Positions 6,794-32,416 of a DNA stretch of 64,000 bases are shown here, in pieces. The translations under genes and the position numbers were made by a program. The DNA is from Planctomycetota bacterium (GTDB taxonomy: Bacteria; Planctomycetota; Planctomycetia; Gemmatales; Gemmataceae), in the NCBI GenBank assembly GCA_021413735.1, contig JAIOPV010000276.1, positions 5,873 through 69,872 on the forward strand, read 5' to 3'. The notes under the pieces were generated by a model that had not been told where the DNA came from, made no database searches, and worked only from the letters and a program-made list of their open reading frames with translations. Positions within the stretch are counted from its first letter, which is position 1; the number at the start of each line of letters is the position of its first letter.

Positions 6794-8034
6794 TTCTCTC
6801 CGATGCACCAGAGTTTCGATTGGCCCAACAGCAGTAGACGGCCGTCCGCGACCGCGGGGGAGGCGTGCCCAGGATCGCCGAGATCGTTGTTGGCGAGCAC
6901 CATGAACTCCGCCCCCGCTTGCACGACGACGCTCTTTCCCGCCGAAGCCAAATAGATGCGTCCCTTCGCGTCGGCGACGGGGCTGGCCCACGCGGAACTC
7001 GCGCCGACACGCTCCTGATACACCTTCTCGCCGGTCTTCAAGCTTCGACAAATGAGGATGCCGTTGTTGTGCAATCGGTAGATGTGTTCGCCGACGATCA
7101 CGGGCGAGCCCAAGCTTTCCGGTACGTTCGCGGTCCATTTGCTGGGTACGGGCGAGGCAGCGTCGCCGGTGGGAATGGAGACCAAGGTGGCGAGCCCGCC
7201 TCGGCCGCTGTCGAAGTAGACGCGATCGCCGGCGAGGACGGGGGTCGCGGTCGAGGCGATCCCCGCAGCCCACCAGAGTTTCTTGCCCGTCAGCGGATCA
7301 AAGGCTTGCAGGGCGTTGTTCGCCGGCTCCTTACTGGAAGCAGCGATCAGCATCTGCGTGCCGATCTTCCCAGACGCCAACACGGGCGTCGAATGCCCGT
7401 AGCCCATGTCTTTGAGACGCAGATCATAGACGATGTCGCCCGTCTGTTTTTTGAACGCGATCAGGCGAGGCTCTTTGTTGAGGCCACAAAAGACAATCAC
7501 CAGATCCTGATACAAGATCGGGCTGGTCGCCATTTCGAAGTTGTAATGGAACGGCTTGAGCTCGTAACGCCATTTCAACTTGCCCGCCGTATCGATCGCG
7601 ACCAGCACCGACGAGCCAAACAGAGCGTAAACGCGTTCGCCGTCGGTGCAAGGCGTGGAGTTGGCATACCCCAAGCCGCGATCGCCTTTCAAAGCCCCGC
7701 GTTTGGCCGGGCCCGGCTCCACCGCGGTCTTCCACAGCCGTTTGCCATCACTGAGCTGAAAACACTGGACGTGATGTAAGGGTTGTTCACCATCGGGATT
7801 CGCGGCGACATTGGCGATATAGACGCGGTCCTTCCACACGATGGGGCTCGAAGTTCCTTGTCCCTCGGCATCGACGGACCAGCGAATGTTCTTCCCGGAC
7901 TTCGCGTTCCATTCGAGCGGTAGGTTGTCGCGCGTGGTGACGCCGCAACCACCCGGGCCACGGAACTGAGGCCAATCCTCGGCGCTGGAGACGCTGGGTA
8001 GCAATGCAAATACAAGCGGCATGAAATAACGCAT
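6790..8034 (-). CDS. Secreted PQQ-like beta-propeller protein
   Basis: Probable start MRYFMPLV at 8034. Motifs EDWPQFRGP, SSPIVWKDRVY, STPCTDGERVYALFGS, ASPVADAKGRIY and HASPAVADGRL. Confidence 0.9.
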   Translation of the reverse strand: MRYFMPLVFALLPSVSSAEDWPQFRGPGGCGVTTRDNLPLEWNAKSGKNIRWSVDAEGQGTSSPIVWKDRVYIANVAANPDGEQPLHHVQCFQLSDGKRLWKTAVEPGPAKRGALKGDRGLGYANSTPCTDGERVYALFGSSVLVAIDTAGKLKWRYELKPFHYNFEMATSPILYQDLVIVFCGLNKEPRLIAFKKQTGDIVYDLRLKDMGYGHSTPVLASGKIGTQMLIAASSKEPANNALQAFDPLTGKKLWWAAGIASTATPVLAGDRVYFDSGRGGLATLVSIPTGDAASPVPSKWTANVPESLGSPVIVGEHIYRLHNNGILICRSLKTGEKVYQERVGASSAWASPVADAKGRIYLASAGKSVVVQAGAEFMVLANNDLGDPGHASPAVADGRLLLLGQSKLWCIGEK

Positions 8035-8160
8035 GGTTGATAGTAGCCCCTTGATCGGCATCGCGTTGTGTCTCAGGAAGCTCATGGGCCGACCTTCGCA
8101 GTTTTCGTGTTCATGGGTCAACACATCCTTGGTCCACTCTTGGTCGGTGAGATCCGTCAC
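8035..8160 (-). pseudogene. Possible degenerate DUF1501 3' tail
   Basis: The in-frame upstream extension SVTDL...HENCEGRPMSFLRHNAMPIKGLL resembles DUF1501 C-termini in this window (NSDGRPVPLTDYGTEPVAAVL, QQRPVPILPSGQSIRELL). Similarity judged by eye only. Confidence 0.4.
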
Positions 8161-18676: not shown

Positions 18677-19575
18677 GGTTTCACTGGTTCCTTCGAGGCT
18701 ACGGTGGGTTGTCGCTTCATGACCCAGAGGTTCCGGTCACCGTCTGAGTAGAAGCGGGTCGGGCGCAGGCGATCCTGCGGTGGCGTACCGGCCTTGAAGC
18801 CGCTTTCCGGGTAGCAGACCTTCAGCGTGTCGTCGTCGATAAACTCGTAGATCGCGGGCAGGTAGCCGTCTTCCGGCGGGGCCGGGTTGCCGCCCTTGGT
18901 GTTCCGGAAGTCGATCGCCCGAGGCGATTTCGTCGGGTCAATCGTGTAGTCCGCGCCGACGGACGGGGTGGGGGATTTCGACGTCGCCTTCCACTCGATC
19001 CGCGTCTTGGTGATGACGCACACGTGACCCGAGTACGGACCGGGTCGGATCTTGTCCGACGCATCGTCGAGGCTCGTGAGCATCGTCCAGGTGCCGAGGA
19101 GCAACTCGGCGTCCTTGCCGGTGGTCCGCGTGGGGCGAGGTGAGCCGGGCTTGATGCGCTCGAGCAGAAAGAAGGTGGACTGGCGACCGCCGCTGTACCC
19201 CTTCGGCCGCGTCGTTTCGTGGAAGGAGATCTTCAGGTAGTCCGGCAGGTACAGGTCGTAGATGCCGGGGAGCGGCTTGTCGGCCTTGCCGCCAACCGGC
19301 TGCAAATCCAACTCGTTGAGCGCGCCCTTCTCCTTGGCCTCCCGGATCACGATCGTCGCGGCGAAGTGACTGACCTTGCCGTCGGCCGATTTCCACTCCA
19401 GCCGGTCGCCCTTGATCGTCACGACCGAGTCCCGCAGTACCGGGTCGTCGAGCGCGTCCGCGTCGCTCCGGTGGGCGAGCAGGACACGCCACGAGCCGTC
19501 GAGCGCGGGCGGGTCGGCCCGGAGGGCTCCGGGGCCGACCGCGGCGAGACACATCAAGCCAAAGAAGTAACGCAT
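18673..19575 (-). CDS. TIGR03067-domain protein (two domains), secreted
   Basis: Start MRYFFGLM. LDGSWRV, LLGTWTM, IDPTKSPRAIDF, AIYEFIDDDTLKVCY and SDGDRNLWVMKR. ATGA-coupled to the downstream cytochrome gene. Confidence 0.8.
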   Translation of the reverse strand: MRYFFGLMCLAAVGPGALRADPPALDGSWRVLLAHRSDADALDDPVLRDSVVTIKGDRLEWKSADGKVSHFAATIVIREAKEKGALNELDLQPVGGKADKPLPGIYDLYLPDYLKISFHETTRPKGYSGGRQSTFFLLERIKPGSPRPTRTTGKDAELLLGTWTMLTSLDDASDKIRPGPYSGHVCVITKTRIEWKATSKSPTPSVGADYTIDPTKSPRAIDFRNTKGGNPAPPEDGYLPAIYEFIDDDTLKVCYPESGFKAGTPPQDRLRPTRFYSDGDRNLWVMKRQPTVASKEPVKP

Positions 19576-19614
19576 GGGGCATCCGGGGAATGAGGTCAAA
19601 CCAACTCGGGGATC

Positions 19615-19675
19615 GTCGGGGCACTGTCGATGGAACTCATCAGGTCGCGATTCGGTGCCCCGACCGTCCATCGAC
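19615..19675. repeat. Interleaved inverted repeats (B-A-B'-A')
   Basis: gtcggggcac (19615-24) pairs with gtgccccgac (19655-64); gtcgatgga (19626-34) pairs with tccatcgac (19667-75). Confidence 0.85.
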
Positions 19676-19689
19676 TCCGGGGCGCACGG

Positions 19690-21006
19690 TTATCCCAGCA
19701 GTTCCTTCACACTCCGGCGGCTGTCGCCGAATCGGTCGGCAGGAACGTCCAGGCGTTCCGACATGGTGCGAAGCACGTCGCAGATCGTGGTTTCTTGCAC
19801 CTTCGCAGACCTGTCGAGCTTGCCCATGTGGTCCTTGTGCGGATTGAAGCGCAGATGGCTGCCGTGCTTGAGGCCCAGCCGACTGCCGCCCGCCAGCAGC
19901 ATCGGCAGGTTCGACGGATTGTGCGTCCAGCTCATGCCGCCGCCGAAGAGCACCATGGTGTTCGCCAGCAGCGTGCTCTCGCCTTCCTTGGTCTCGTTGA
20001 GCCGTTCGAGGAACCGGGCCAGATGGGCGACAAACCACTTGTCCACGCTTTCGAGTAAGGCGAAGTCTTTCGGGCGTTGCGCCTCGGTGTCGTAGTTGGT
20101 GGCGTGCGAAGCGCGGTGGTGCGTGTCGTTACCGAACTGGGGCCATTGCCCGAAAAACTCGTGGCCCGAGCCGCAGGCGAGGATCGACACGATCCGCGTC
20201 TGATCGTTACGGAGCGCCAGCGCGACCAGATCGAGCATGGTTTGGAAATAATCCTGTCGTTGCGATTGCGGATCGACGTCGAGCTTCAGATTGTCGGCTG
20301 AGATTGGCAATGGTTTGGAGGCGAAGTACCCGCGATCGGCTTGCAACCGGCTTTCCACGTCGCGAACACTTTGTAAGTAGTCGTCGAACCGCTGGCGGTC
20401 GTTCTTGCCCAGTTGCTTCGAGAGCCCCTTTGCCTGTTCGCCGACAAGGTCGAGGACGCTGGACCGCCGATCGAGCCGGGAAAGGACATCAGGGGAGCCA
20501 AACAACTCGCCGAAAAGCCGGCGGAGGTTGTTCTCGGCATTGACCGGCGTCCCCTTGGCGTCGAACGACGTGGTGACGCTCCCCCCCGGAGCGCTGAGTA
20601 CCAGGCTGGGGATGCGCGTGCGGCTGCCGATCGCTCCGGCGATGTGCTGATCGATCGAGATCGTGTTCGGCTCGACCGGGCCGTCCTTGCTCTTGTACTT
20701 TTCGTTGCCGGTCAGCCAGACGCCGACTTCATAGTGTCCGCCGCCCGCCCCCTTGGCGTGCTCCAGTCCGGAAAAGATGGTCAGCTCCTTGCGGAAGGGC
20801 GTCAGCGCCGCGAGCGTACTGCTGATCTTGTAGTCGGGGCCGAGCGCTTTCGGGTGCCAGCGCCACATGTTGACGCCGCTGGGCACCATGAAGAAGACGG
20901 CCCGGCCCGGGGCTTTGGCTTGCTTCTCCGCGGCGGCGAGAGTTTCCAGCCAGGGCAAGGGCAGGCAGACGCCGGCGGCCTTGAGAACATTACGTCGAGT
21001 GAGCAT
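19690..21006 (-). CDS. DUF1552 protein, module 4
   Basis: 438 aa. MLTRRNVLKAAGVCLPLPWLE, DQTRIVS, HHRASH and TLLANTMVLFGGGM. Confidence 0.92.
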   Translation of the reverse strand: MLTRRNVLKAAGVCLPLPWLETLAAAEKQAKAPGRAVFFMVPSGVNMWRWHPKALGPDYKISSTLAALTPFRKELTIFSGLEHAKGAGGGHYEVGVWLTGNEKYKSKDGPVEPNTISIDQHIAGAIGSRTRIPSLVLSAPGGSVTTSFDAKGTPVNAENNLRRLFGELFGSPDVLSRLDRRSSVLDLVGEQAKGLSKQLGKNDRQRFDDYLQSVRDVESRLQADRGYFASKPLPISADNLKLDVDPQSQRQDYFQTMLDLVALALRNDQTRIVSILACGSGHEFFGQWPQFGNDTHHRASHATNYDTEAQRPKDFALLESVDKWFVAHLARFLERLNETKEGESTLLANTMVLFGGGMSWTHNPSNLPMLLAGGSRLGLKHGSHLRFNPHKDHMGKLDRSAKVQETTICDVLRTMSERLDVPADRFGDSRRSVKELLG

Positions 21007-21018
21007 GGGAAATCTCCG

Positions 21019-23619
21019 TTAGCCGTGGGTGAACGAGTTACTGAGGATGATCGACTTGATCACCTCGCGCAGTTTCCAGCCATCGCGGCGGGCGGACCGA
21101 ACCAACTCGCGAACCCCCGCTTCATCGTGCAGACGGACCTGACGAGCCAGGGCATACCCCATCAGCTGCCGCAAAAGCACCTCGCCGAACTGGTAGCGCG
21201 AATTCGCCTGTTCGTCTTTTAGCAACGCCGTGAACTCCGCCAGATTGGCAAACGTCCGGCCATCCGGAACCTTGCCGGAACAGTCCGTGATCGGTGCGGG
21301 GGTGTTGGGCTTGATCGGCTTCGGAGTGATCTTTTGCCCCAGGTAGTCGAGGTCGGCCCAGACGAAGCCGAGCGGGTCGATCTTGCGGTGGCACAGTTGG
21401 CAGGTGTTGATCGACGTATGGAGCTTGACCTGTTCGCGGATCGTCAGCTTGCCGCGCGTTTTCTCTTGCTTGGCCTGGACTTCGAGCGGCTCGACGTTGC
21501 CCGGCGGCGTGCCGGGATGTTCGCCCAGGAACCGTTGAAGGAGGTAGACCCCGCGGTGGATGGTCGCTTCCTTGTTGCCCCGCGAGGCCGCCACGACAAC
21601 GCCGGCCGTGGTCAACCAGCCCCACCTACGGTCGGTCGGTGCCGGCACGGTTCGGAACTCGCTACCGGTTACGTCAGCAATGCCGTAGTAGCTCGCCAGC
21701 CGATCGTTCACCAACAGGTAGTCACCGCCGATCAGTTCTTGCAGCGGGCGATTGTTCTTCAGCACGTGCTCGAAGTGGCGCACCGGCTCACGCGCCAGAT
21801 CGTGCTTGAGGCGAACTTCGCGCAGTCCAGCCACCTTGGCGTGGCTGAAACTGCGAAGGGTCAACCCGAAGTCGATTGGATCGTTCTCGACACGCTCCAG
21901 CGCCAGCAGCCGGCCTACGAAATCCGCGGTGAAGACTTGACTGCGTTCGTCGTCTAGCAGCCGGTCGACCTGGCTGGCCAACACCTTGGGATCGTGCAGC
22001 TTCTTCTGCTCGGCGAGCTTGAGCAGTTCGGCATCCGGGCCGCGCCCCCAGAGGAACATCGAGAGCCGATTGGCCAGTTCCAGATCGGTGAGAGGAGCGA
22101 CCTTCTCGGCCTTGCGTTCGACGATGTAGATGGCGAACGGTGATACCAGCACCGCGGTCAGCGGTTGCAGCAAGGCCCCGTCGCGGCTGTCGCCGGCCTT
22201 GCGCCGTGATTGGTAAAGCTTGACGAACGGGGCGACCTCCTCCGCGGTCACCGGTCGCCGCCAGGCCCTGGAGGCGACTTCGGTGAGGATCGCCGACGCT
22301 CGCTCTTTCTCGTCGGTCAACTTGTCGCCCGCTGCCAGGAGCGTCTGATGGCGGCGCGGCGGCCAAACCAGCGTGCCGGGGCCGTTGACCTCGATCTGAT
22401 CCAACACCAGCATCGGCTCCTGCCACGGCCAAACCTGTGGCTTGCCTTTTTCTGTCACCGGCTTCACTCGATCCGTGATCGGCATGTAGTCGTTGGTGAT
22501 CCGCAGGCTCACTCGGCCGGAGCGTTCGAAAAGCACCCACGGGAAATCGAGCAAATCCAGCGGGATTTCCACGTCGTAATCCTGAAGTTTGTCCGGCGAG
22601 TTCGTCACCGGGAACGACGCGATTTCCTTTCCGTAAATCTGGTTGACCACGTTGTTGTGCAGGGCCACACGCAGAACCGGAGCACCTTCCCCCTTGGGGA
22701 TGACTGCCGCCGCACGGATGCGAACGTGCAGCACGCCGGACTTCGGAAACAAGGGCAACTCGAGGTAACACGAACCCGCGTTCACCTTGTCGCGGCCCAG
22801 ATAGCCCTCGTCACTGCGGTAAATCGGCGGCAGGCTGAACGTGTCGTCCGCGTTTCGCTCCGTCACACCGAAGCTGACCGTGGCGGGCTGTGCCACGTCG
22901 GTTTGCTTCACAGCGACCTTGCCGCCAAACCCTTGTTCACCGGGTTTGAAGCCGGAGACATTGACTCGTTGGATGAGCGATCGCGGATCGATGCGATACG
23001 TGAACGGCGTGGGTCTCGCTTCGGGTGCCAGCACCGCCGAGACCGCTTTCTCGGTCAATTCGACGTAGGTCTTCAGGTGAAGACTTTGGAAGTTGAGCAA
23101 GTCGCCGTCGTTGAGCGGGGCTTCGGTCTGCGGGTCGTTGGGCAGTTTCTCCCAGAGGTGGATTGGCACGTTGGAGAAATGCAGCCCGAGCACGTCTTCC
23201 AGCATTCGGGCATACTCGACCCGCGTCAGGCGTCGCATGGTGGTTCGGCCGGTACCGCCACGGTCGGCGAGCACACCCCGTTCGGAAGCCTCGCGGATCC
23301 ACGTCGTGAGTGTGGCAAGTTCGTCGGTGGTGAGCTTGGGTTTGTCGCGGGGCGGCATCTCGCCGCGGACCAGCATGGAGTAGACGTTCTCCCATCTGGC
23401 CCGCACCTTGGCGTTGACCAGGTCGGGGGCCGGGCCGTCGAGCCGGATGTCGCCTTTCGGCTTCTCGGCTCCATGGCAGGAGACGCAGTGCTTGGCGAGC
23501 AGCGGCTTGACGACGCGGTCGAAGTCGGTCGGCTGCTCGGCCCGCACTGACTGCACACCGGCCGTGAGCAGCGCGAGCATCGCGCCGAGACAGGTCGATG
23601 TTGTTCTTGAACTGGCCAT
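21019..23619 (-). CDS. DUF1592-type diheme cytochrome c, module 4
   Basis: 866 aa. CVSCH, RRLTRVEY, ELANRLSMFLW and CQLCH. Confidence 0.93.
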   Translation of the reverse strand: MASSRTTSTCLGAMLALLTAGVQSVRAEQPTDFDRVVKPLLAKHCVSCHGAEKPKGDIRLDGPAPDLVNAKVRARWENVYSMLVRGEMPPRDKPKLTTDELATLTTWIREASERGVLADRGGTGRTTMRRLTRVEYARMLEDVLGLHFSNVPIHLWEKLPNDPQTEAPLNDGDLLNFQSLHLKTYVELTEKAVSAVLAPEARPTPFTYRIDPRSLIQRVNVSGFKPGEQGFGGKVAVKQTDVAQPATVSFGVTERNADDTFSLPPIYRSDEGYLGRDKVNAGSCYLELPLFPKSGVLHVRIRAAAVIPKGEGAPVLRVALHNNVVNQIYGKEIASFPVTNSPDKLQDYDVEIPLDLLDFPWVLFERSGRVSLRITNDYMPITDRVKPVTEKGKPQVWPWQEPMLVLDQIEVNGPGTLVWPPRRHQTLLAAGDKLTDEKERASAILTEVASRAWRRPVTAEEVAPFVKLYQSRRKAGDSRDGALLQPLTAVLVSPFAIYIVERKAEKVAPLTDLELANRLSMFLWGRGPDAELLKLAEQKKLHDPKVLASQVDRLLDDERSQVFTADFVGRLLALERVENDPIDFGLTLRSFSHAKVAGLREVRLKHDLAREPVRHFEHVLKNNRPLQELIGGDYLLVNDRLASYYGIADVTGSEFRTVPAPTDRRWGWLTTAGVVVAASRGNKEATIHRGVYLLQRFLGEHPGTPPGNVEPLEVQAKQEKTRGKLTIREQVKLHTSINTCQLCHRKIDPLGFVWADLDYLGQKITPKPIKPNTPAPITDCSGKVPDGRTFANLAEFTALLKDEQANSRYQFGEVLLRQLMGYALARQVRLHDEAGVRELVRSARRDGWKLREVIKSIILSNSFTHG

Positions 23620-23642
23620 TTCTGAGTGCTCTCGCTTGAGTA

Positions 23643-23810
23643 CTACCCCTTCCCAACAACTTCCTCGATCGCCTTCCCGCCCGGAGCGACCGTGCGCACC
23701 GGACGGCTCCCGGCGTGCAAATCCTTCGTCGGGTCGATGCCCAGCAGCGTCAGCACGGTGGCCATGAAGTCCGGACCGCTCACGGGTCGGTCCACCACTT
23801 CCGCGGCCTT
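23643..23810 (-). pseudogene. Headless 3' tail of a DUF1501 gene
   Basis: KAAEVVDRPVSGPDFMATVLTLLGIDPTKDLHAGSRPVRTVAPGGKAIEEVVGKG*. Positions 23710-23810 are 100/101 identical to 27658-27758. Confidence 0.92.
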
Positions 23811-23829
23811 CACGTTGATGAGGTCTCGC

Positions 23830-25167
23830 TCAGGTCAATTGCCGAAGCGGCCCGGTGCTGTCGCCGAATCGCGGCATTCGGACGCCCGCTTGCTCAAGCA
23901 TAGCGAGGTAGAGGTTCGCAATCGGGGTCTCGGCGGGGTAGACGCGATGGAAGCCGAGACGCAACGAGCCGTTCCCGCGCCCCGCGAGCAGCACCGGGAG
24001 ATCATCGTAATTGTGATCGTTGCCACGGCCGATGCTGCAGCCGAACATCACCTGCGACCGGTCGAACAGGCTGTGCTCGCCTTCGCGGGTGTTCTTGAGA
24101 CGGTCGAGCAGGTAGGCGAAGAAGCTGATGTGGTAGGCGCCGATGGCCGTGTACTTGTCCTGCCGAGTTTTGTCGGCACCATAGTGGGAAACCTCGTGGT
24201 GGCCGTTGCGTACGTTGATTTCCGGATAGGATCGTTGGCTGGCGTCGTTCCCCAGCATGAGGCTGCCAACGCGGATCGAATCCGTCGCCAGGGCCACGAC
24301 AAGCAGGTCGATCATGAGACGGGTGTGTTCGGCGAAATCGGCGGGAACGATCGGCAAGGGTCCGTTGGCTGTGAGCGACCTGTCCGGGACCGGTGGGTTG
24401 CGCTCGTAGGCTTGCACGCGGCGCTCGATTTCTCGGACGCTCTCGAGATACTGCTCGACCTTGAGGCGATCGGCCGCCCCCACCCGCTGGGTTAACTCGC
24501 GTGCCTCGGCGCGTACGAAATCGAGAATGCTGCGCCGCTGGCGGACTTCGTCCTCACGGGCAGCCCCTGCATCCGCAAACAGCCGCTCGAAGACGCTGCA
24601 CGGACTGATGTCGCGGCTGAGCGGCGTGGTCGGCGTCCGCCAGGAAATCGTCGTTGTGTAGGCGCAGTGATATCCGACATCACAGGTCCCGGTGCCGGTC
24701 GGCGTTTCGACGCTCAGCTCGAGCGACGGGAGCCGCGTCCGCGTGCCGAGTTCCCGGGCGAGGACCTGGTCGACGGAAATGCCCGACCGCACATCGCTGC
24801 CCAGCGTCACGCGGGGAGTGCTGCAGGTGAGGAAGCAACCCGAACCCGGTGCGTGCCCCGCACGCTTAGGCCCGCCGCGATACGCCTCCATGTTCGCCAG
24901 GTGCGTCAGCACGCTGAAATCGGCAATGTGTGGCTTGAGCGAGCGAAGAATTTCGGGGAGTTTCTCCAGGCGGCCTTCGGCCGCGGGAGTCCAATTGGGC
25001 ATGTACATGCCATTCGGCCCGTAGACGAAGAGCGTGCGCACCGGCGGCGGCCCGCTCTGGTCGGCACGCAGCGGCTGCATGGCCTCAAGCCACGGCAGAG
25101 CCAGCGATACGCCCGCCGACCGCAGTAGCGCTCTTCGCGAGATCGGTCGATGGTGCAGGATGTTCAT
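23830..25167 (-). CDS. DUF1552 protein, module 5
   Basis: 445 aa. ISRRALLRSAGVSLALPWLEAM, PNGMYM, HHEVSHY and GRGNDHNYDDLPVLLAG. Confidence 0.93.
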   Translation of the reverse strand: MNILHHRPISRRALLRSAGVSLALPWLEAMQPLRADQSGPPPVRTLFVYGPNGMYMPNWTPAAEGRLEKLPEILRSLKPHIADFSVLTHLANMEAYRGGPKRAGHAPGSGCFLTCSTPRVTLGSDVRSGISVDQVLARELGTRTRLPSLELSVETPTGTGTCDVGYHCAYTTTISWRTPTTPLSRDISPCSVFERLFADAGAAREDEVRQRRSILDFVRAEARELTQRVGAADRLKVEQYLESVREIERRVQAYERNPPVPDRSLTANGPLPIVPADFAEHTRLMIDLLVVALATDSIRVGSLMLGNDASQRSYPEINVRNGHHEVSHYGADKTRQDKYTAIGAYHISFFAYLLDRLKNTREGEHSLFDRSQVMFGCSIGRGNDHNYDDLPVLLAGRGNGSLRLGFHRVYPAETPIANLYLAMLEQAGVRMPRFGDSTGPLRQLT

Positions 25168-25206
25168 GATAAGCGTCTCCGAACTCGGATGGAAAATCAG
25201 CGTGAA

Positions 25207-27561
25207 CTATCGGTTATTGAAGGCCGGGCTGGCGATGATTCCGCGGATCAGTCCGCGCGATCGGTCCTTGTTCCGTGCCAGCGCGTCGACGATCGCCTGA
25301 ATCGCACGCACGTCCGCTGGGTCCGGCCCACGGCCCAGGGCGTAAATCATCATCTTCTCGGTCAAACAGCTCAGAAACTGCTCTTTGCGGGGGCCGACCA
25401 GGATTTTCTTGAGGCCCTCGACGCCCTGCACCTTCTCGCCCGAGGGAAGGACTGCCGTCGCATCGACGGGATGCCCCGAATCGTCCACTTTCCGTACTTT
25501 GCCGATGATGTCGAAGCCTTCGAGCGCAAATCCCAGCGGATCGATGCGGTTATGGCAGACCGCGCAACGAGCGTTGGACCGATGCTTTTCAAGCTGCTGG
25601 CGGAGGGACAACTTGGACTTGCTCGCCGCCTCGTTTGAGGAGTCCAGGTTCGGCACGTCCGGCGGCGGTGGCGGCGGGGGAGCATTGAGCAGGTTCTCGA
25701 GGATCCACGCCCCACGCACGACGGGCGAAGTCCGCGTCGGATACGAGGTCGCCGCCAGCACCGACGCGTGCGTCAGCAAGCCGCCCCGGCCCTTAACCTC
25801 GACCCGCTGGAAACCGGCGTCATCCGGGACTTTCGGCAGACCGTAGAACCGGGCGAGGGATTCATTCACCAATGAAAAATCGGCGTCAATGAGCGTGGTC
25901 AATGGCAGGTCTTTGCGGAGCACCGTAGCAAAGAACAGCTCGGTTTCGCGCACCGCTGAATCGCGAACCTGCTCGAAGTCGGCGTATCGCTTGTTCTTCG
26001 GATCGGGGCGAAACTCCTTGAGGCGGGCGAACTTCAACCACTGATGCGTGAAACTGCGGCAGAATTCCTCGAAGCGGGCATCGCCGATCATCCGGTCAAC
26101 GTGCCGATCCAGTTCTTTGCGAAGCCGACCCGCGCGAGCAGCGTCGAACAGTTCCTTGTCGGGCATGGTGTTCCAGAGAAAAAACGAGAGGCGGTTCGCA
26201 AGCTCAAACTCATCGACGGGCCTTGGCCCGCCCTTGCCTCGTTCGGCTTCCACTATGAACAGGAAGTTCGGCGAACAGAGCATCGCTTGCAGGGCCAGTT
26301 GCACGCCTTGATCGAACGACTGCCCCCCGGAATGTGCCTTCTCGACGATGGCAACAAGGCGGGCAACCTGCTCGCGCGTGGCCGGTCGTCGGTAGGCGCG
26401 AGTCGCCAGCGGCTCGAAGATGGCCTCGGCAGCCTCGCGCACACTCCTGGTCTTGCTGGGCCGCGCGACCACCACCCGACGATGCGGCTCGGGATAGGTG
26501 CTGTCGGAGGTCTGAGACGGCCGAGCAATGAGCACCCGTTCAAGCAGGATCGGCCCGCGCTTCGGTGCTTTTTCGCCCTTGGGCACCGGCTCCGGGATCG
26601 GCCGAAATGTGAACTCCGCCTTGCCCTTGGGCAGCCGCAGGCGGACCTTCGTCCAGGTCAACGACGACGATGCGACGGGAACCCGGAACGCCTCCGTTCC
26701 GCCGATATCGACTGCCAACTGCAGGGGCTTGGAGCCGATGTTCTCACCCAGCGCCTGCACCTTGATGACATACTCGTCGTCGTCCGGAATCTCGAACGTA
26801 TGGGCGAGGAACTTGCCCCCCGGCGGAGCCCAAGGGAGCTTTTTGCCGGTGAACTCAAGGCCGAAAGTATCGTCATTCGGACCTCTCACCCGGGCGAGCG
26901 GCCATTCGAGCTTGGCCACGACCGGCGCGGCATCATCCGGGTCGGTGATGATCACTGCGGCGGCGATCTCCTTGGCCATGCGCAGGTACTGCTCCATCAA
27001 GATGGGCGAGATCGTCAGGTGCTCGCCGATATTGTCGAAGCCGTAGCCGATTTCATCCGCAGGCAGATGGGTCGTGGGATCATAGTCCACGCCGAGAAGG
27101 TCGCGGATCACGTTGCGATACTGCACGCGGTTGAGGCGGCGCAGCGGCGTCGGAGGTGGCACGCGCGTGGAGGCGAGGAGGCGTTGTTTCAGCGCCGGTT
27201 GAAGCTCCGTCAGGAACCGATCGACCTCTTCGGCCGCGGGTTGAGTCTTGTCGGCGGGAGGCATCGAGCGCGATTCAACCTGCTCAATGACTTTGGTCCA
27301 GGTTCCATGCCGATCTGCCCAGTCGGAGGCCAGCAGGTCGTCGAGCCGGGTCATCCCCTTGGCGGACTTCCCGGAGTGGCACGAAAGACAGTGCTTCTTG
27401 AGAAACGCCGGGGCCGTTTCCTGCACAAACTGCTCGCTACGTTCAGGTGCCCGGGCGAGCAGTTCCGAAGAACCCGTCTGCAAAAAACCCGAAGTCGCCA
27501 CGAGGATCACGAGGATCACGAGGATGACGCCGGTGCGTCTGCTGGCGGTTGAACTGGTCAT
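25207..27561 (-). CDS. DUF1592-type diheme cytochrome c, module 5
   Basis: 784 aa. CLSCH, RRLNRVQYRN, ELANRLSFFLW, TSPVVRG and CAVCH. A 9-bp x3 repeat (27499-27525) encodes VILVILVIL in the signal peptide. Confidence 0.93.
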   Translation of the reverse strand: MTSSTASRRTGVILVILVILVATSGFLQTGSSELLARAPERSEQFVQETAPAFLKKHCLSCHSGKSAKGMTRLDDLLASDWADRHGTWTKVIEQVESRSMPPADKTQPAAEEVDRFLTELQPALKQRLLASTRVPPPTPLRRLNRVQYRNVIRDLLGVDYDPTTHLPADEIGYGFDNIGEHLTISPILMEQYLRMAKEIAAAVIITDPDDAAPVVAKLEWPLARVRGPNDDTFGLEFTGKKLPWAPPGGKFLAHTFEIPDDDEYVIKVQALGENIGSKPLQLAVDIGGTEAFRVPVASSSLTWTKVRLRLPKGKAEFTFRPIPEPVPKGEKAPKRGPILLERVLIARPSQTSDSTYPEPHRRVVVARPSKTRSVREAAEAIFEPLATRAYRRPATREQVARLVAIVEKAHSGGQSFDQGVQLALQAMLCSPNFLFIVEAERGKGGPRPVDEFELANRLSFFLWNTMPDKELFDAARAGRLRKELDRHVDRMIGDARFEEFCRSFTHQWLKFARLKEFRPDPKNKRYADFEQVRDSAVRETELFFATVLRKDLPLTTLIDADFSLVNESLARFYGLPKVPDDAGFQRVEVKGRGGLLTHASVLAATSYPTRTSPVVRGAWILENLLNAPPPPPPPDVPNLDSSNEAASKSKLSLRQQLEKHRSNARCAVCHNRIDPLGFALEGFDIIGKVRKVDDSGHPVDATAVLPSGEKVQGVEGLKKILVGPRKEQFLSCLTEKMMIYALGRGPDPADVRAIQAIVDALARNKDRSRGLIRGIIASPAFNNR

Positions 27562-27590
27562 GACTAATCACTCTCCTCCGGGGTGGATAG

Positions 27591-28889
27591 TTACCCCTTG
27601 CCGACGATTTCCGTTACGGGCTTTGCTCCGGGGGCGACCGTGCGAACCGGCCGGGTTCCGGCGTGCAAATCCTTCGTCGGGTCGATGCCCAGCAGCGTCA
27701 GCACGGTGGCCATGAAGTCGGGACCGCTCACGGGTCGGTCCACCACTTCCGCGGCCTTGTCGTCAGTCTTGCCGACCACCGCCCCGCCGGGTGCCCCGCC
27801 GCCGAACAGCACCGTGGACCACGCCTTGTCGTAGTGGTTCCGCGAGCCGGACTTGTCGTGCGTCTTCGGGGTGCGGCCGAACTCGCCCATCCAGACGACC
27901 AGCGTATCATCAAGAAGCCCGCGGTCCTTCAGGTCGGCGAGAAGGGCGGTCATCGCCTGATCACTGACCGGCAACAGGGTATCCCGGACCGACTCCGAAC
28001 GCTTCTGCTCGTGGGTGTCCCAGTCGCCGAGGTACACCTCGACGAACGGCACGCCGGTCTCGACGAGACGGCGGGCGAGCAAGCACCCCTGGCCGAACTC
28101 GTGTTTGCCGTACCGCTCGCGGACCTTCTCGGGCTCGCGTGACAGGTCGAACACCTGGCTCTTGCCGGACCGGACCAATTCCACCGCCCCCTGGTAGGCG
28201 GTCCGCTGCGCCTTCACCGCCGGCCACGGGGCGGTGCGCTGGAAGCCCTGCGCGAGCTTGTCGGCGAGGTCCAACTTCTCCGCGTACTCGGCCGTATCGG
28301 TTCCGGGCTGGGCGTTCTCCAGCCCCTTCGACAGGTCGCGGAGGATCAACCCGTCGTGGCGCGGGCCGAGGAACCCGGCGCCGCTGATGTGCGGGAAGTT
28401 CTGCATCGTCTTGCCGGCGACGACGAAGTTCGGCAGGCCGGTGTCCTGCGGCCGGTGGGCGGCGACGATCGACCCCAGCGACGGATAGGTCAGCCCGGCG
28501 AAGTTCGGGCGGTAGCCGGTGTGCATGTAGATCCGGCCCCGCCAGTGCTCGGCGGCCTCGTCGGTCTTCATCCCGCGGATCACGCAGGCGCGGTCCATCC
28601 ACTTCGCGAGTTTCGTGTAGCCCTCGCCGATTTGCAGTCCCGGCACGGCAGTCTGAACTGCCTTGTACGGGCCGCGGAACTCGGCCGGGGCGTCGGGCTT
28701 GGGGTCGAACGTGTCGGTCTGCGACGGCCCGCCGTCCATCCAGAGCAGGATGCACGATTTGTGCTTCTTCTTCGGCGTCTCGGCGGCGTGCGCCGCGAGC
28801 GGCCCGAGCCACCGCGAGAACGACACGGCCGACACCCCGGCGGCGGCCAGGCGCAGGGTTTCGCGGCGGGTGAGCGGACGGTCGAACAT
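27591..28889 (-). CDS. DUF1501 protein (Tat-type leader)
   Basis: MFDRPLTRRETL after an AGGAG RBS. WMDGGPSQTDTFDPKP, CLLARRLVETGV, WDTH and GEFGRTP. Confidence 0.93.
   Translation of the reverse strand: MFDRPLTRRETLRLAAAGVSAVSFSRWLGPLAAHAAETPKKKHKSCILLWMDGGPSQTDTFDPKPDAPAEFRGPYKAVQTAVPGLQIGEGYTKLAKWMDRACVIRGMKTDEAAEHWRGRIYMHTGYRPNFAGLTYPSLGSIVAAHRPQDTGLPNFVVAGKTMQNFPHISGAGFLGPRHDGLILRDLSKGLENAQPGTDTAEYAEKLDLADKLAQGFQRTAPWPAVKAQRTAYQGAVELVRSGKSQVFDLSREPEKVRERYGKHEFGQGCLLARRLVETGVPFVEVYLGDWDTHEQKRSESVRDTLLPVSDQAMTALLADLKDRGLLDDTLVVWMGEFGRTPKTHDKSGSRNHYDKAWSTVLFGGGAPGGAVVGKTDDKAAEVVDRPVSGPDFMATVLTLLGIDPTKDLHAGTRPVRTVAPGAKPVTEIVGKG
27658..27758. repeat. 101-bp direct repeat, partner of 23710-23810
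   Basis: One mismatch over 101 bp (gaagtcggga vs gaagtccgga). The two copies bracket module 5. Confidence 0.95.
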
Positions 28890-28898
28890 CGCCAACTC

Positions 28899-30821
28899 CT
28901 ACGGGATGACGGCGAATTCGGGAGAGTTCACGAGTGCCCACCAGACGGCCTGGTAGCCGTCGAGCGGGCTCTTGCGGCGACTCACGTACTCGCGGGTGAG
29001 TTTCAGTTCCTCGTCGCGCGGGTTGCGGCTTAGCACCCCAACGAAGACGCGCGTGAGGATCGCGTCCGCGTCGCCGCCCTCCTTCGCGGCGTCGGTGACG
29101 AGCCTGTTCGGCACGCTCACGGCCGGGTCGTTGAGGAGGGCCAGCACCTGGGCGATCCCCTGCGTGTAATCGCCCGGGTCGGTGTCGGCGGTCGCGGTAC
29201 CGAACAGCTTCAGAAACTCGCCGCGTGACGCGAGCGGGCCCTTCCCGCCGATGCCGCCGCCCCCCTTGGCGTCGAGCGTGTTCCCGGAGGCGACCACCAG
29301 CGACTCGAACAACGGCTCGGGGCTCACGGCCTTACCGGCGGCGTGGCTGTAGAGTAACTCGTCCCGCTCGTTGCCCGGAACGGTGGTGTGCGTCCGCTGG
29401 TACGCCCTCGTGAGGAGCACCGCCCGGAGGAGGTGCTTCAGGTCGTACCCGGAGGCGACGAACTCGCCGGCCAAGGCGTCGAGCAGTTCCGGGTGCGTCG
29501 GCGGGTTCTCCGGGTCGAGGGAATCGACCGGGTTGACCAGCCCCCGGCCGAACGCCTGCGCCCACAGCCGGTTGGCGGCGGCGCGGGCGAACATCGCGTT
29601 CTTCGGCGAGGTCACCCACTCCGCGAGTGCCGCCCGGGGCGAGCGGTCGTCGAGCTTCACCACCTCGCCGCGCGGGAACTTCGCGGGCACGACGGTTTTC
29701 GCCCGCGGGCCGGCGTCGTCGGGGATGAGCACCGCGCCGCCGTCTTTCCGCTCCAGCGGTTTCAGCCCGAACCGCGTCCTCGGCGGCCCCTTCTCGCTGT
29801 CGTAGATGCCCGTGCGGGTCTCGGTCTTGTTCTTCTCCACCTTCGCGGTCCGCGCAAAGAACGCCGCCAGACTCCAGAAGTCGTCCTGCTTCCAGTCGGC
29901 GAACGGGTGATTGTGGCACTCGGCGCACTCCAGCCGGACGCCGAGGAACCGCCGCGACACCGACATCGCCAGCTTGTTCGCCCGCGGTTGCCCGTCGTCC
30001 ATGCACTGCCGGACGAACGCGACCGGGGGCGACTCGCCCTCCGCCGTGATCATCTCGCGGACCAGTTCGTCCCACCGGCGGTTCTTGTTGAACCCGTCGG
30101 TGAGCCAGGCGTAGAACGCGGCGGTGTGGTTCGACCCCAGATCCGCGTTCGCACTGGTGGCGACCGCGACGCGGTCGCGCCAGAGGCGGGCCTGATAGGC
30201 CCCGTACTCCGGCCGGGCGAGCAGCGCGTCGATGAGCTTCTCGCGCTTGTCGGGGGCTGTGTCGCCGAGGAACGCGGCGGCCTCGGCGCGGGTGGGGATG
30301 CGGCCCACCACGTCGAGCCAGACGCGGCGCTGGAACTCGCCGTCGTCCGCGACGGGCGAGGCGGGGACCTTCGCGTCGGCGAGCCGGCGGTCGATCTCGC
30401 GGTCGATGAACTCGGCCAGTTCCTTCGCCGTCCGGGCCTTCGGCGGCACCCGCAACTCCCCCCCAAACGGGGCCGACTTCGCCCCGGCGGCGATCCACCG
30501 GCGGATCACATCCTTGTCCGCCGCGGAGACCTTGATCGGCCCCTTCGGCATCGCGCCGGCCTCGACCGCCTTCAGCAACTCACTTGCCTTCGGGTCGCCC
30601 GGGACGATCACCTTGCCGCTGTCACCGCCGGCAAGCGCCGATGCGGCCGTGCGGAGATCGAGTCCGCCCTTCTGGTGGATGCCGCCGTGGCACTGGAGGC
30701 AGTGCGAACTGAGGATCGGGAGGACGTCACGCTCGAACGTGGGGGTCGCGGCCGACTCGGCACCGGTGGCCGCCGTGGGCACGAGCAGGATCGCGAGGAT
30801 TGTGGGGAGCAGGCGTGGCAT
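28899..30821 (-). CDS. PSCyt1-DUF1549-DUF1553 cytochrome c protein
   Basis: Start MPRLLPTIL. CLQCH, ADDGEFQRRVWLDVVGRIPT, CAECHNHP, NRLWAQAFGRGLVNPVD and THPELLD. Confidence 0.93.
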   Translation of the reverse strand: MPRLLPTILAILLVPTAATGAESAATPTFERDVLPILSSHCLQCHGGIHQKGGLDLRTAASALAGGDSGKVIVPGDPKASELLKAVEAGAMPKGPIKVSAADKDVIRRWIAAGAKSAPFGGELRVPPKARTAKELAEFIDREIDRRLADAKVPASPVADDGEFQRRVWLDVVGRIPTRAEAAAFLGDTAPDKREKLIDALLARPEYGAYQARLWRDRVAVATSANADLGSNHTAAFYAWLTDGFNKNRRWDELVREMITAEGESPPVAFVRQCMDDGQPRANKLAMSVSRRFLGVRLECAECHNHPFADWKQDDFWSLAAFFARTAKVEKNKTETRTGIYDSEKGPPRTRFGLKPLERKDGGAVLIPDDAGPRAKTVVPAKFPRGEVVKLDDRSPRAALAEWVTSPKNAMFARAAANRLWAQAFGRGLVNPVDSLDPENPPTHPELLDALAGEFVASGYDLKHLLRAVLLTRAYQRTHTTVPGNERDELLYSHAAGKAVSPEPLFESLVVASGNTLDAKGGGGIGGKGPLASRGEFLKLFGTATADTDPGDYTQGIAQVLALLNDPAVSVPNRLVTDAAKEGGDADAILTRVFVGVLSRNPRDEELKLTREYVSRRKSPLDGYQAVWWALVNSPEFAVIP

Positions 30822-30843
30822 GGGGAGGGCTTCCTGCGGGCGA

Positions 30844-30904
30844 GTCCGACACCGAACCCCGTCCATTGAAGTGAGCAGACAGCGTGCAGAGAAAAAACAC
30901 ACAC
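30844..30904. repeat. Dispersed ~60-bp intergenic repeat, copy 2
   Basis: gtccgacaccgaaccccgtccattgaagtgagcagacagcgtgcagagaaaaaacacacac; partner of 8189-8247. Confidence 0.95.
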
Positions 30905-30922
30905 CCGGGCCGGCAGACCGAT

Positions 30923-32062
30923 TCACCGGTCCCGCCCGGCGAGGTGCTTCTCGAACCACGCGGCCATGCGGTCGCGCATCTCCGGCAGGTACTCGTGGGC
31001 GGTGTTCTCGTACACCACGCTGCAGAAGTGGTCCGACTGGCCGTGCAACTTGTACACCGCCCCGAGTTTTTTCTCCAGTACCTCGATTCCGGTCAGCGGC
31101 AGGCCGAAGTCGCGGTCGCCGGAGAGCATTAGAAGGGGGCGCGGCGCGATCAGCGAGTACACCGCCTCGGTGTCGAAGTGCCGGAGCAGTCCCGGCACGA
31201 AGTAGTACATGCCGTGCAGCCGGACGCCGTTGTGGGCGATCAGCTCGGCATACCGCGTGAACCCGGCGACCCCGACCCCGGCGGCGACGCGGTCATCGAC
31301 CGCCGCCAGCCACCACGTCCCGGTCCCGCCCATGCTCATGCCGGTCACGCCGATCCGCTTCGGGTCGACCTCCGGGCGGATGACGAGGTAGTCGATGAGG
31401 CACTGCTGGTCGCGGATCATCATCCCCCACAGCGACCGCCCCAGCCACAGGTTCAGCTTCACCCAGGTGCCCTCGTCGGCCCCAGGCAGTTGGCGGTCCC
31501 CAACCTTCTTGCCGGAGCGGTCGCCGCAGAAGTACGAGTCGATGGCCGCGACCGCGAACCCCTTCTTGACCAGGAGCGGGCCGACGCACTGCGGGTTCTG
31601 CTCGTCAGTGCAGATCGTCTCCTTGCTGCCGCCGTGGCCGTGCAGCCCGACCACCACCGGCAGCGATCCCTTCTGCCCCTTGGGGATCAGGAGCATCCCG
31701 GTGACGACGGAATCGACCCCGTTGTCGAACTCGAACCGCTCCAACGTGTAGCCGTCCTTGTCCTCGGTGGCCGTCACCTTGACCGCGAGATTCTTCGGTC
31801 GCGGAGGAAGCTCGCCCAAACACTTCAGCACGGTATCGCGGGTCTTCGCCCGGTCCGCCGACTGCCACCGCTTCAGGTCGTCGGGAAGTTTCCAGTCCGG
31901 CGGCTTGAGCCGCCGGAGTTCTTCCGGCACCCCGGCCCACGGCTCCCCGAGCGGCTTGCCGCTCTTCGACTTGGCGGGCGTGACCCGCTCTTGGGCCGGA
32001 GTCACCGGGGCGCCGACGACGAGTAGGCTGAGCGCCGCCAGAGTTGTGGCGAGACGAATCAT
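30923..32062 (-). CDS. Secreted alpha/beta hydrolase (dienelactone hydrolase/acetylxylan esterase-like)
   Basis: Start MIRLATTL (signal peptide). PVVVGLHGHGG, nucleophile elbow GMSMGG, APRPLLMLSGDRD and HEY. Confidence 0.88.
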   Translation of the reverse strand: MIRLATTLAALSLLVVGAPVTPAQERVTPAKSKSGKPLGEPWAGVPEELRRLKPPDWKLPDDLKRWQSADRAKTRDTVLKCLGELPPRPKNLAVKVTATEDKDGYTLERFEFDNGVDSVVTGMLLIPKGQKGSLPVVVGLHGHGGSKETICTDEQNPQCVGPLLVKKGFAVAAIDSYFCGDRSGKKVGDRQLPGADEGTWVKLNLWLGRSLWGMMIRDQQCLIDYLVIRPEVDPKRIGVTGMSMGGTGTWWLAAVDDRVAAGVGVAGFTRYAELIAHNGVRLHGMYYFVPGLLRHFDTEAVYSLIAPRPLLMLSGDRDFGLPLTGIEVLEKKLGAVYKLHGQSDHFCSVVYENTAHEYLPEMRDRMAAWFEKHLAGRDR

Positions 32063-32168
32063 CGGGTATTGGGGTTGATCGGAACGGGTGGGTCGTTGGT
32101 TTATCCTCATTTGAACACAACCCCACCGGGCCCGACCCCCAGACAGCTTGAAAAGCCCGGACCCACGC

Positions 32169-32369
32169 GCTGAGAGCCCGACACTTTTTGTAGGAGCGGG
32201 AAATCAAGGTGTTGCGGCCTGGACCGGCGGGATCCTACCGCTGTGATTTCGTGTGGTTTCGTTGAACCTCAATAATCCACAGTAGGATTATTGCTCTGCT
32301 GGGGATTCACTCGAAACCTCCAACATCACTTGATTTCTGCACCTCCCAAAAAACTGTCGGGCTCTCAGC
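32169..32369. mobile_element. MITE-like 201-bp element with terminal inverted repeats and nested internal inverted repeats
   Basis: Perfect 15-bp IR gctgagagcccgaca (32169-83) / tgtcgggctctcagc (32355-69), extending imperfectly to about 45 bp. Inner IRs: gaaatcaag/cttgatttc, ggtttcg/cgaaacc and aataatcc/ggattatt. No ORF. A third TIR core starts at 32368. Confidence 0.6.
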
Positions 32370-32416
32370 TGAGAGCCCGGGACACGGGGCATTACGCGAG
32401 AGCGGTCGTACGCCGG

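Follow-up and report, generated by a model that had tools for sequence, protein, structure and literature searches.

Insertion of a foreign DUF1592/DUF1552 gene pair into the 3' end of a DUF1501 gene in a planctomycete gene island

We analysed a 64,000-nt stretch of contig JAIOPV010000276.1 from a planctomycete genome (G000, a 9.8-Mb draft assembly in 293 contigs). This whole stretch is referred to as the window, and coordinates without a contig name are positions in it. The analysis centres on module 5, a pair of genes coding for a DUF1592-type and a DUF1552 protein, which lies in an island of such modules and is bracketed by two nearly identical 101-nt copies of the 3' sequence of a DUF1501 gene. 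Every gene in this region is coded on the minus strand, and the features are listed here from the highest coordinate to the lowest.

28899..30959, minus strand: gene with PSCyt1, PSCyt2 (DUF1549) and PSD1 (DUF1553) domains (Pfam), referred to as PSD1; resident partner of DUF1501a
27591..28895, minus strand: DUF1501a (Pfam DUF1501, E 2e-100), a chimera of resident body, 101-nt segment and foreign tail B
27658..27758, minus strand: repeat copy B, 101 nt, within the functional DUF1501a; 1 mismatch to copy A, 8 to genome G042
27591..27657, minus strand: tail B, the new foreign C-terminus (...GTRPVRTVAPGAKPVTEIVGKG, then stop); 23/67 mismatches to the G042 orthologue
27464..27590, minus strand: spacer IG-B, start codon and signal-peptide region of the module-5 DUF1592-type gene; non-native, differs from L037, L051 and L048
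25207..27561, minus strand: module 5 gene 1, DUF1592-type multi-domain cytochrome-like protein of 784 aa (Pfam PSD3/PSD5/PSD4(DUF1592)/PSCyt3/PSD2)
23830..25167, minus strand: module 5 gene 2, DUF1552 (HXXSHH) protein of 445 aa (Pfam E 5e-90)
23811..23829, minus strand: module-5 3' flank, up to the illegitimate junction (comparison with L052)
23710..23810, minus strand: repeat copy A, 101 nt, start of the orphaned DUF1501 3' fragment; begins exactly where the module-5 flank ends
23643..23709, minus strand: tail A, the displaced original C-terminus (...GSRPVRTVAPGGKAIEEVVGKG, then stop), now an orphan; 3/67 mismatches to the tail of the intact G042 gene
21019..23619, minus strand: module 4 gene 1, DUF1592-type protein of 866 aa (Pfam), resident downstream neighbour
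19690..21006, minus strand: module 4 gene 2, DUF1552 protein of 438 aa (Pfam)

The repeat search returned a single repeat family, which pairs 23644-23815 with 27592-27763 (172 nt, 87% identity, spacing 3948 nt). Its two parts behave very differently. The 101-nt copies at 23710-23810 and 27658-27758 differ, by alignment and by exact count, in one nucleotide, a synonymous change (CCG vs CCC) at position 39, so that the longest exact runs inside the repeat are 38 and 62 nt. The last 67 nt including the stop codon (23643-23709 vs 27591-27657) differ at 20 positions without a single indel, and past the stop the similarity is weaker still (~74%, with one 6-nt indel) across the intergenic spacer and the first codons of the next open reading frame (ORF). 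A match of 100/101 cannot be attributed to chance. According to BLAST against the whole assembly, the 101-nt repeat is confined to these two sites, and the 3,948-nt unit holds exactly one DUF1592-type/DUF1552 pair by Pfam. The original prediction had described just this arrangement, namely near-identity over 101 nt giving way to sharp divergence, a spacing of 3,948 nt and one gene pair, and all of it is borne out by alignment, exact counts and Pfam. Two simple sources of the repeat were considered and rejected. Tandem duplication of a module is incompatible with the proteins of modules 4 and 5, which are only 31% (gene 1) and 34% identical, and with nucleotide similarity limited to the 168-nt tail and the spacer. 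A second copy or a donor inside the same genome can be set aside as well, since the repeat, tail B and the tail-B spacer are all unique in the assembly.

The state of the locus before module 5 is preserved in a related genome. Within the genus, a protein search found orthologues of the module-4 DUF1552 protein in genomes G008 and G042 only. Contig C675 of G042 (7,662 nt) aligns to 31035-27628 at 93.8% and to 23810-19431 at 92.9% identity; both alignments overlap in one single copy of the repeat, and module 5 is absent. The DUF1501 ORF of G042 is intact (~434 aa), ends with ...GGKAIEEVVGKG before the stop (C-terminal sequence KAAEVVDRPVSGPDYMATVLTLLGIDPTKDLHAGSRPVRTVAPGGKAIEEVVGKG, then stop) and is followed by the same spacer and then directly by module 4. 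A strain lacking module 5 had been suggested as a check of the original prediction, and G042, with its single repeat copy and its intact DUF1501 gene adjoining module 4, is such a strain. It also reveals which of the two gene ends is the original one. Over the last 67 nt, tail A differs from G042 by 3 mismatches (64/67 match) and tail B by 23 (44/67 match); because of these counts, tail A is identified as the resident gene end and tail B is not. The G042 empty site thus establishes both the insertion and its polarity, as had been proposed: the resident DUF1501 gene was interrupted and received a new C-terminus (tail B), and the old one (tail A) was displaced downstream. In the 101-nt segment, copy A has 7 mismatches to G042 and copy B has 8. 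Since the same 7 differences are common to both copies, the copies are one and the same allele, as expected for duplicated resident sequence. Four of these 7 differences cluster at positions 84-91 of both copies, beside the tail B boundary.

The order DUF1501-module 4 recurs in more distant contigs. Tail A is contiguous with the spacer and module 4, as it is in G042, L041 and G008. The DUF1501 gene of L041 ends with ...GGKAIEKVVGKG and aligns in one piece over 23810-22995 at 84.7%, and in L042/L043 (GCA_021413475.1) the layout is PSD1-DUF1501-module 4. When G000 is compared with L041 across the reconstructed empty site, identity varies between 53% and 93% per 90 nt with no sharp step, so that this comparison does not tell the body from tail A. 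Taken at the level of sequence, these comparisons place the insertion of module 5 after the split from the lineage of G042, a sister species that has kept the uninterrupted site. Two other candidates for the empty site had to be discarded. Genomes G002 and G022 and locus L040 are without modules 4 and 5, carry a second DUF1501 gene, DUF1501b, instead, and have a third type of tail that is equidistant from A and B and so gives no hint as to which of these is the old one. G008, the nearest relative by modules 3-4, is uninformative, as its contigs C158 and C307 end at 23654 and 29532, respectively. The break on both sides leaves the stretch from the PSD1 3' end through DUF1501a and possibly module 5 to tail A unassembled in G008, perhaps because strains differ at the locus or just because coverage was low.

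The neighbouring resident gene PSD1 is syntenic at 87-94% identity in G002, G022, G042 and L040, and the DUF1501a body is 94% identical to those of L040 and G042, with divergence climbing sharply over the last ~85 nt. For module 4, gene 1 is 92.9% identical to its counterpart in G042, 92-96% in G008 and 85% in L041, and the protein of gene 2 is 96-97% identical in G042 and G008 and 88% in L042. Within DUF1501a, a patch of ~120 nt (28600-28717) is nearer to G002 than to L040, the opposite of the rest of the gene; this small mosaic patch points to ordinary homologous exchange among these lineages.

The boundaries of the insert, which comprises 3,847 nt from 27657 down to 23811, can be placed precisely. 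On the right, the metagenomic relative L052 shares the module-5 3' flank ...TGAaCGAGACCTCgTCAACGTGA, read as ...TGA(a/g)CGAGACCTC(g/a)TCAACGTGA, and then diverges; the divergence point is exactly 23810/23811, and the next base of G000 is the first base of copy A. The sequence at this junction is ...CAACGTGA / AGGCCGCGG..., that is, ...GACGACA/AGGCC..., with an overlap of about 1 nt and at most 1-3 nt, which makes it an illegitimate joint. The left junction is homologous and lies inside the conserved DUF1501 C-terminal motif, where the reading frame passes in register, without an indel, from the resident gene to the homeologous tail B. On this 5' side, identity to L037, L051 and L048 starts only at ~27460-27467, just past the signal peptide. 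These three share a native start and signal peptide (MNQN.YRMA..., 75-89% nt identity among themselves), and the start and signal peptide of module 5 in G000 are completely different from that type. The insert is consequently composite: tail B comes first, then a 29-nt spacer and the region coding for the signal peptide (together 27464-27657), and after these the body and flank of module 5. The original prediction was therefore too simple in taking the arriving piece to be a DUF1501 tail plus module 5 and nothing more, since the native start and signal peptide of the module were lost and another spacer and signal peptide were joined to tail B.

The origin of the leading part of the insert can be narrowed down further. 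Tail B (...APGAKPVTEIVGKG) is of the orthologue type (cf. ...APG[AG]K[PA]I[SE]E.VGKG in the orthologue series P0002-P0006), and other DUF1501 paralogues end quite differently. The sequence behind tail B, comprising the spacer and the initial codons, resembles the one in front of module 4. Between tails B and A, 6/22 residues differ, a change of the tip that is probably neutral in function. The simplest reading of these features is that the donor would have been a relative with module 5 already in place of module 4 behind the orthologous DUF1501 gene. Its haplotype should be recognizable by a DUF1501 gene ending with ...GAKPVTEIVGKG followed by ATGACCAGTTCAAC.... Pattern searches of metagenome and genome contigs, exact as well as degenerate, gave 0 matches to the tail B peptide and to the region of the spacer and signal peptide, and a protein search found no homologue of residues 1-40 of the module-5 protein. 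The orthologous type of tail B also tempers the suggestion that abundant DUF1501 genes serve as landing pads, which turns out to be overstated: the anchor here is the orthologous gene and not any of the at least 136 paralogues.

Module 5 itself is foreign to this lineage. Close relatives of its DUF1592-type protein are found only on metagenome contigs. One of them, L037, has 94.6% nucleotide identity to G000 over 27460-23932, but in its flanking genes (PSD1, DUF1501 and DUF1592) the figure drops to 66-68%. The remaining nucleotide identities over module 5 are 94.1% (L051), 91.8% (L052), 88.6% (L048) and 85% (L038, L039, L049 and L050). In all orthologous contigs the DUF1552 gene is co-linear with the DUF1592-type gene. 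The pair occurs in six other genomic contexts, including after a lone DUF1592 gene, by a Bax1-I gene, by a DDE-like gene and upstream of AIM24/ParE/PIN genes, and in none of the six does a DUF1501 gene lie directly upstream. Among 29 genomes of the genus no orthologue exceeded 42% aa identity, and a search of 267 genomes from the order yielded nothing at E<=1e-200. The GC content at third codon positions (GC3) is 76.9% in the DUF1592-type and 79.4% in the DUF1552 gene of module 5, compared with 91.3% in DUF1501a and 90.5% in PSD1. By its sequence, module 5 is thus foreign and mobile cargo. Across 19690-30959, GC3 goes from ~91% (PSD1, DUF1501a) to 77-81% (modules 5 and 4) and then to ~87% (module 3); these steps suggest that module 4 may also have been acquired, earlier than module 5.

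The insert carries no mobility gene. Pfam typed two genes only and detected no integrase, transposase or recombinase; the repeat search found no terminal inverted repeats around the insert, and the 101-nt duplication is far longer than a target-site duplication. A site-specific integrative element (phage, integrative and conjugative element, integron cassette, insertion sequence or transposon) was consequently rejected for want of an encoded enzyme, terminal inverted repeats and an att-like site.

A second gain in the same island is seen in G008, whose modules 3-4 share 92-96% identity with those of G000. An extra 5-kb module (locus L026, contig C158 2646-7760, corresponding to 20956-21007) lies at the 5' end of the module-4 DUF1552 gene there. 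It codes for a DUF1592-type protein of 886 aa, a DUF1552 protein of 443 aa and an FGE-sulfatase-like protein of 283 aa, and neither G000 nor G042 has it. Its left junction is illegitimate, 52 nt into the DUF1552 gene, whose start (MLTRRHFLKAAGV...) is lent to the incoming DUF1592-type protein. At the right junction, which is homologous, the DUF1552 gene is 20-28% diverged from G000 over its first ~130 nt and 2-5% over the rest. Just before the resumed DUF1552 gene lies an orphan DUF1592 3' relic (...LREITMAIMPTETFAHE, then stop), and the event is a replacement without duplication. Hence, three genomes that are only 4-7% apart reveal two independent additions of modules to a single island, and in both cases one junction is homologous and the other illegitimate.

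How module 5 reached its place we infer from its boundaries. We favour a non-circular, homology-anchored route, which might be either homology-facilitated illegitimate recombination (HFIR) of linear DNA or a replication template switch, and give it a probability of roughly one half. In this scheme, host recombination, with no element-encoded enzyme involved, would have inserted the 3,847 nt of foreign DNA into the resident DUF1501a at its 3' end. The incoming DNA, coming from a relative, would have comprised the diverged tail B with the spacer and signal peptide behind it, followed by the body of module 5 and 20 nt of its flank. The left joint would have formed by homology, in register at the DUF1501 C-terminal motif, so that the frame continues into tail B. 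On the right, the end of the flank would have been joined to the resident sequence at a position 101 nt upstream of the exit point, which would have duplicated those 101 nt. The outcome is a DUF1501 gene with a new C-terminus and an added DUF1592-type/DUF1552 pair, and the old tail persists in front of module 4 as a 168-nt orphan.

The near-identity of the repeats can be accounted for in three ways. Both copies can be resident, through capture of linear DNA or a template switch back to a point 101 nt upstream. Alternatively, the donor can have been a conspecific whose gene body was identical and whose breakpoint at 27657/8 was older; a circle and a single crossover would then suffice. Finally, heteroduplex can have been repaired to the same type in both copies. 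The cluster of differences at positions 84-91 does not clearly favour any of the three.

HFIR has been described in Acinetobacter, Pseudomonas stutzeri, Streptococcus pneumoniae and E. coli conjugation (as presented in PMC3240628 and in references 41, 42 and 47 of PMC5361080). The likeness to the present case is considerable: one end is anchored by homology in a conserved gene and the other is joined with no or minimal microhomology, no element-encoded enzyme is needed, and non-homologous foreign cargo is trapped. The module gained by G008 fits this pattern cleanly. The module-5 event differs in that its illegitimate joint is set back by 101 nt, to the upstream side of the homologous exit, so that recipient DNA is duplicated, in that no competence has been demonstrated for the planctomycete host, and in that its mechanism is deduced from sequence only. 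Several observations weigh against the homology-anchored route. HFIR usually deletes recipient DNA at the illegitimate joint, and here 101 nt were duplicated. The donor haplotype, a DUF1501 gene with tail B directly before module 5, was found in no collection searched. The cluster at positions 84-91 could be a short tract converted to the donor type, in keeping with heteroduplex at a reciprocal crossover.

The original prediction was an integration of the Campbell type, and we consider this the best of the alternatives, albeit distinctly less probable. In it, a circle composed of the 101 nt, tail B, the spacer, module 5 and the flank would have entered the resident DUF1501 gene by a single reciprocal crossover and might leave again via the 101-nt repeats. 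The topology of insertion-duplication, as in integrative plasmids or circles formed from transforming DNA, is matched exactly, with direct repeats flanking the insert and a single copy in the relative. The illegitimate junction between the flank and the 101 nt could be the closure point of the circle, and the differences at 84-91 common to both copies fit a repaired heteroduplex. A difficulty lies in the repeats themselves. Because each repeat would be a donor/resident hybrid, a circle from a foreign donor predicts repeats as different as the tails (20/67), and 1/101 is seen; the copies are near-identical although the adjoining donor and resident tails are 30% diverged. A conspecific donor with an identical DUF1501 body would make the repeats identical by descent, but such a donor would have to be mosaic already, or an extra conversion step would be needed, and the donor was not found in the collections searched. 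Moreover, the insert lacks a recombinase, an att-like site and any replication function. As to excision through the repeats, it is possible in principle, as in Campbell integrants generally; 101-nt direct repeats are a workable RecA substrate, though below the typical length. Both the circular intermediate and ongoing excision of module 5 should be regarded as hypothetical.

It is tempting to go further and speculate, with considerable reservation, that conserved gene ends (for instance the DUF1501 C-terminal motif, the DUF1552 N-terminal signal region and DUF1592 3' tails) serve as generic anchors, and that two-gene cytochrome/DUF1552 modules circulate between species as recombinase-free cassettes, which enter and leave islands in the form of circles of ~4 kb. 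If this were true, it would amount to an integron-like cassette economy driven wholly by host homologous recombination.

A deletion remnant combined with gene conversion is very improbable. According to this scenario, an ancestral DUF1501a-module 5 arrangement was followed by a full PSD1-DUF1501-module 4 unit, a deletion spared only the last 168 nt of the second DUF1501 gene, and the 101-nt tract was homogenised later. Orphan DUF1501 3' ends made by truncation do occur in the genome (19596-19652; C24:38015-38299; C14:7606-7815), and a conversion tract bounded by the end of homology would yield a sharp 99%/70% step. However, in G042 the body (93.8%) and tail A (3/67) form one gene adjoining module 4, and since they belonged to one gene there, no second DUF1501 gene is needed. 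Nor does G000 carry another PSD1/DUF1501 copy of this kind, and the absence of module 5 from the 29 genus and 267 order genomes also speaks against the scenario. G042 largely excludes it. The least probable explanation is an assembly artefact in which an empty-site chromosome and a separate module-5 strain or molecule were misthreaded through the shared 101 nt: the draft does have 293 contigs, exact runs of just 38 and 62 nt could confuse a small-k graph and the G008 contigs break on either side (at 29532 and 23654), but this seems unlikely, as an overlap of at most 1-3 nt at the junction of the flank with the 101 nt is beyond what k-mer threading in a de Bruijn graph can invent, the single mismatch ties the C variant to the body and tail B and the G variant to the flank and tail A, and even with alternative threading a molecule with module 5 between DUF1501 3' sequences must exist.

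Apart from HFIR, the closest analogues of the locus as we interpret it are the orphan 3' tips of Rhs, contact-dependent growth inhibition (CDI; cdiA-CT) and type VI secretion system (T6SS) loci. For these effector-immunity arrays, a displacement model is set out in PMC5361080, where an anchored new 3' end together with downstream genes shifts the old 3' end into an orphan position. The present locus shares the conserved upstream anchor, the new 3' end with its downstream genes and the old tail (here tail A) kept as an orphan fragment; growth of such arrays by successive displacements is a further likeness to the island. The differences concern the content. There are no toxin or immunity genes, Pfam showing only DUF1501, DUF1592-family and DUF1552 domains, the payload is a whole two-gene module and not the tip, and the new tip departs from the old one in just 6/22 residues.

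Planctomycete genomes have very large DUF1501, DUF1552 and PSCyt/PSD gene families. To our knowledge, no event-by-event account exists of how arrays of these genes expand. The present analysis gives one gain at nucleotide resolution, including its empty site, insert boundaries and foreign source, together with a second, independent gain in a sister genome. The recombination is of a known kind that had not yet been documented for this lineage and gene family, and no new kind of mobile element is involved. The two gains support the view that the island grows through homology-anchored capture of foreign two-gene modules at conserved gene ends, with orphan tails as scars. This supplies a testable model of module exchange and also a rule for annotation, by which short DUF1501 or DUF1592 3' fragments between modules are to be read as insertion scars and not as genes.

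Other scars are present in the window and elsewhere in the genome. One of them follows module 4:

19596..19652, minus strand: second orphan fragment, directly behind module 4, with the final ~55 nt of another DUF1501 gene (DUF1501b)

DUF1501b is intact in G002, G022 and L040; the relic aligns to its 3' end in G002 and L040 (...RDLM..IDSAPTIPEL., then stop) and to the shared spacer. With the relic in this place, the 332-aa ORF predicted from 19671 more probably begins at the ATG at 19575. The genome has 136 or more DUF1501 genes of nearly full length. Outside the window, it also contains orphan 3' fragments of such genes at C24:38015-38299 (~95 aa in frame) and C14:7606-7815 (~70 aa), both without an upstream gene body and without a near-identical partner. 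Several DUF1501 genes are split by frameshifts (on C102, C141, C175, C183 and C201).

Two observations concern other parts of the island. Contig C307 of G008 aligns to 34107-32385 and to 32166-29532 with only 10 nt between the two alignments (C307 2630-2639). A 211-nt palindromic element at 32169-32379 (within 32167-32384), which resembles a miniature inverted-repeat transposable element, thus appears to be absent from G008, which would make this an empty site for it. In the distant relative GCA_021413475.1, the gene after module 4 (L042 7498-7801) is homologous to 7757-8062, which lies ~11.6 kb further downstream in the window; this suggests that modules 3 and 2 and accessory genes may have been added later to an ancestral PSD1-DUF1501-module 4 locus.

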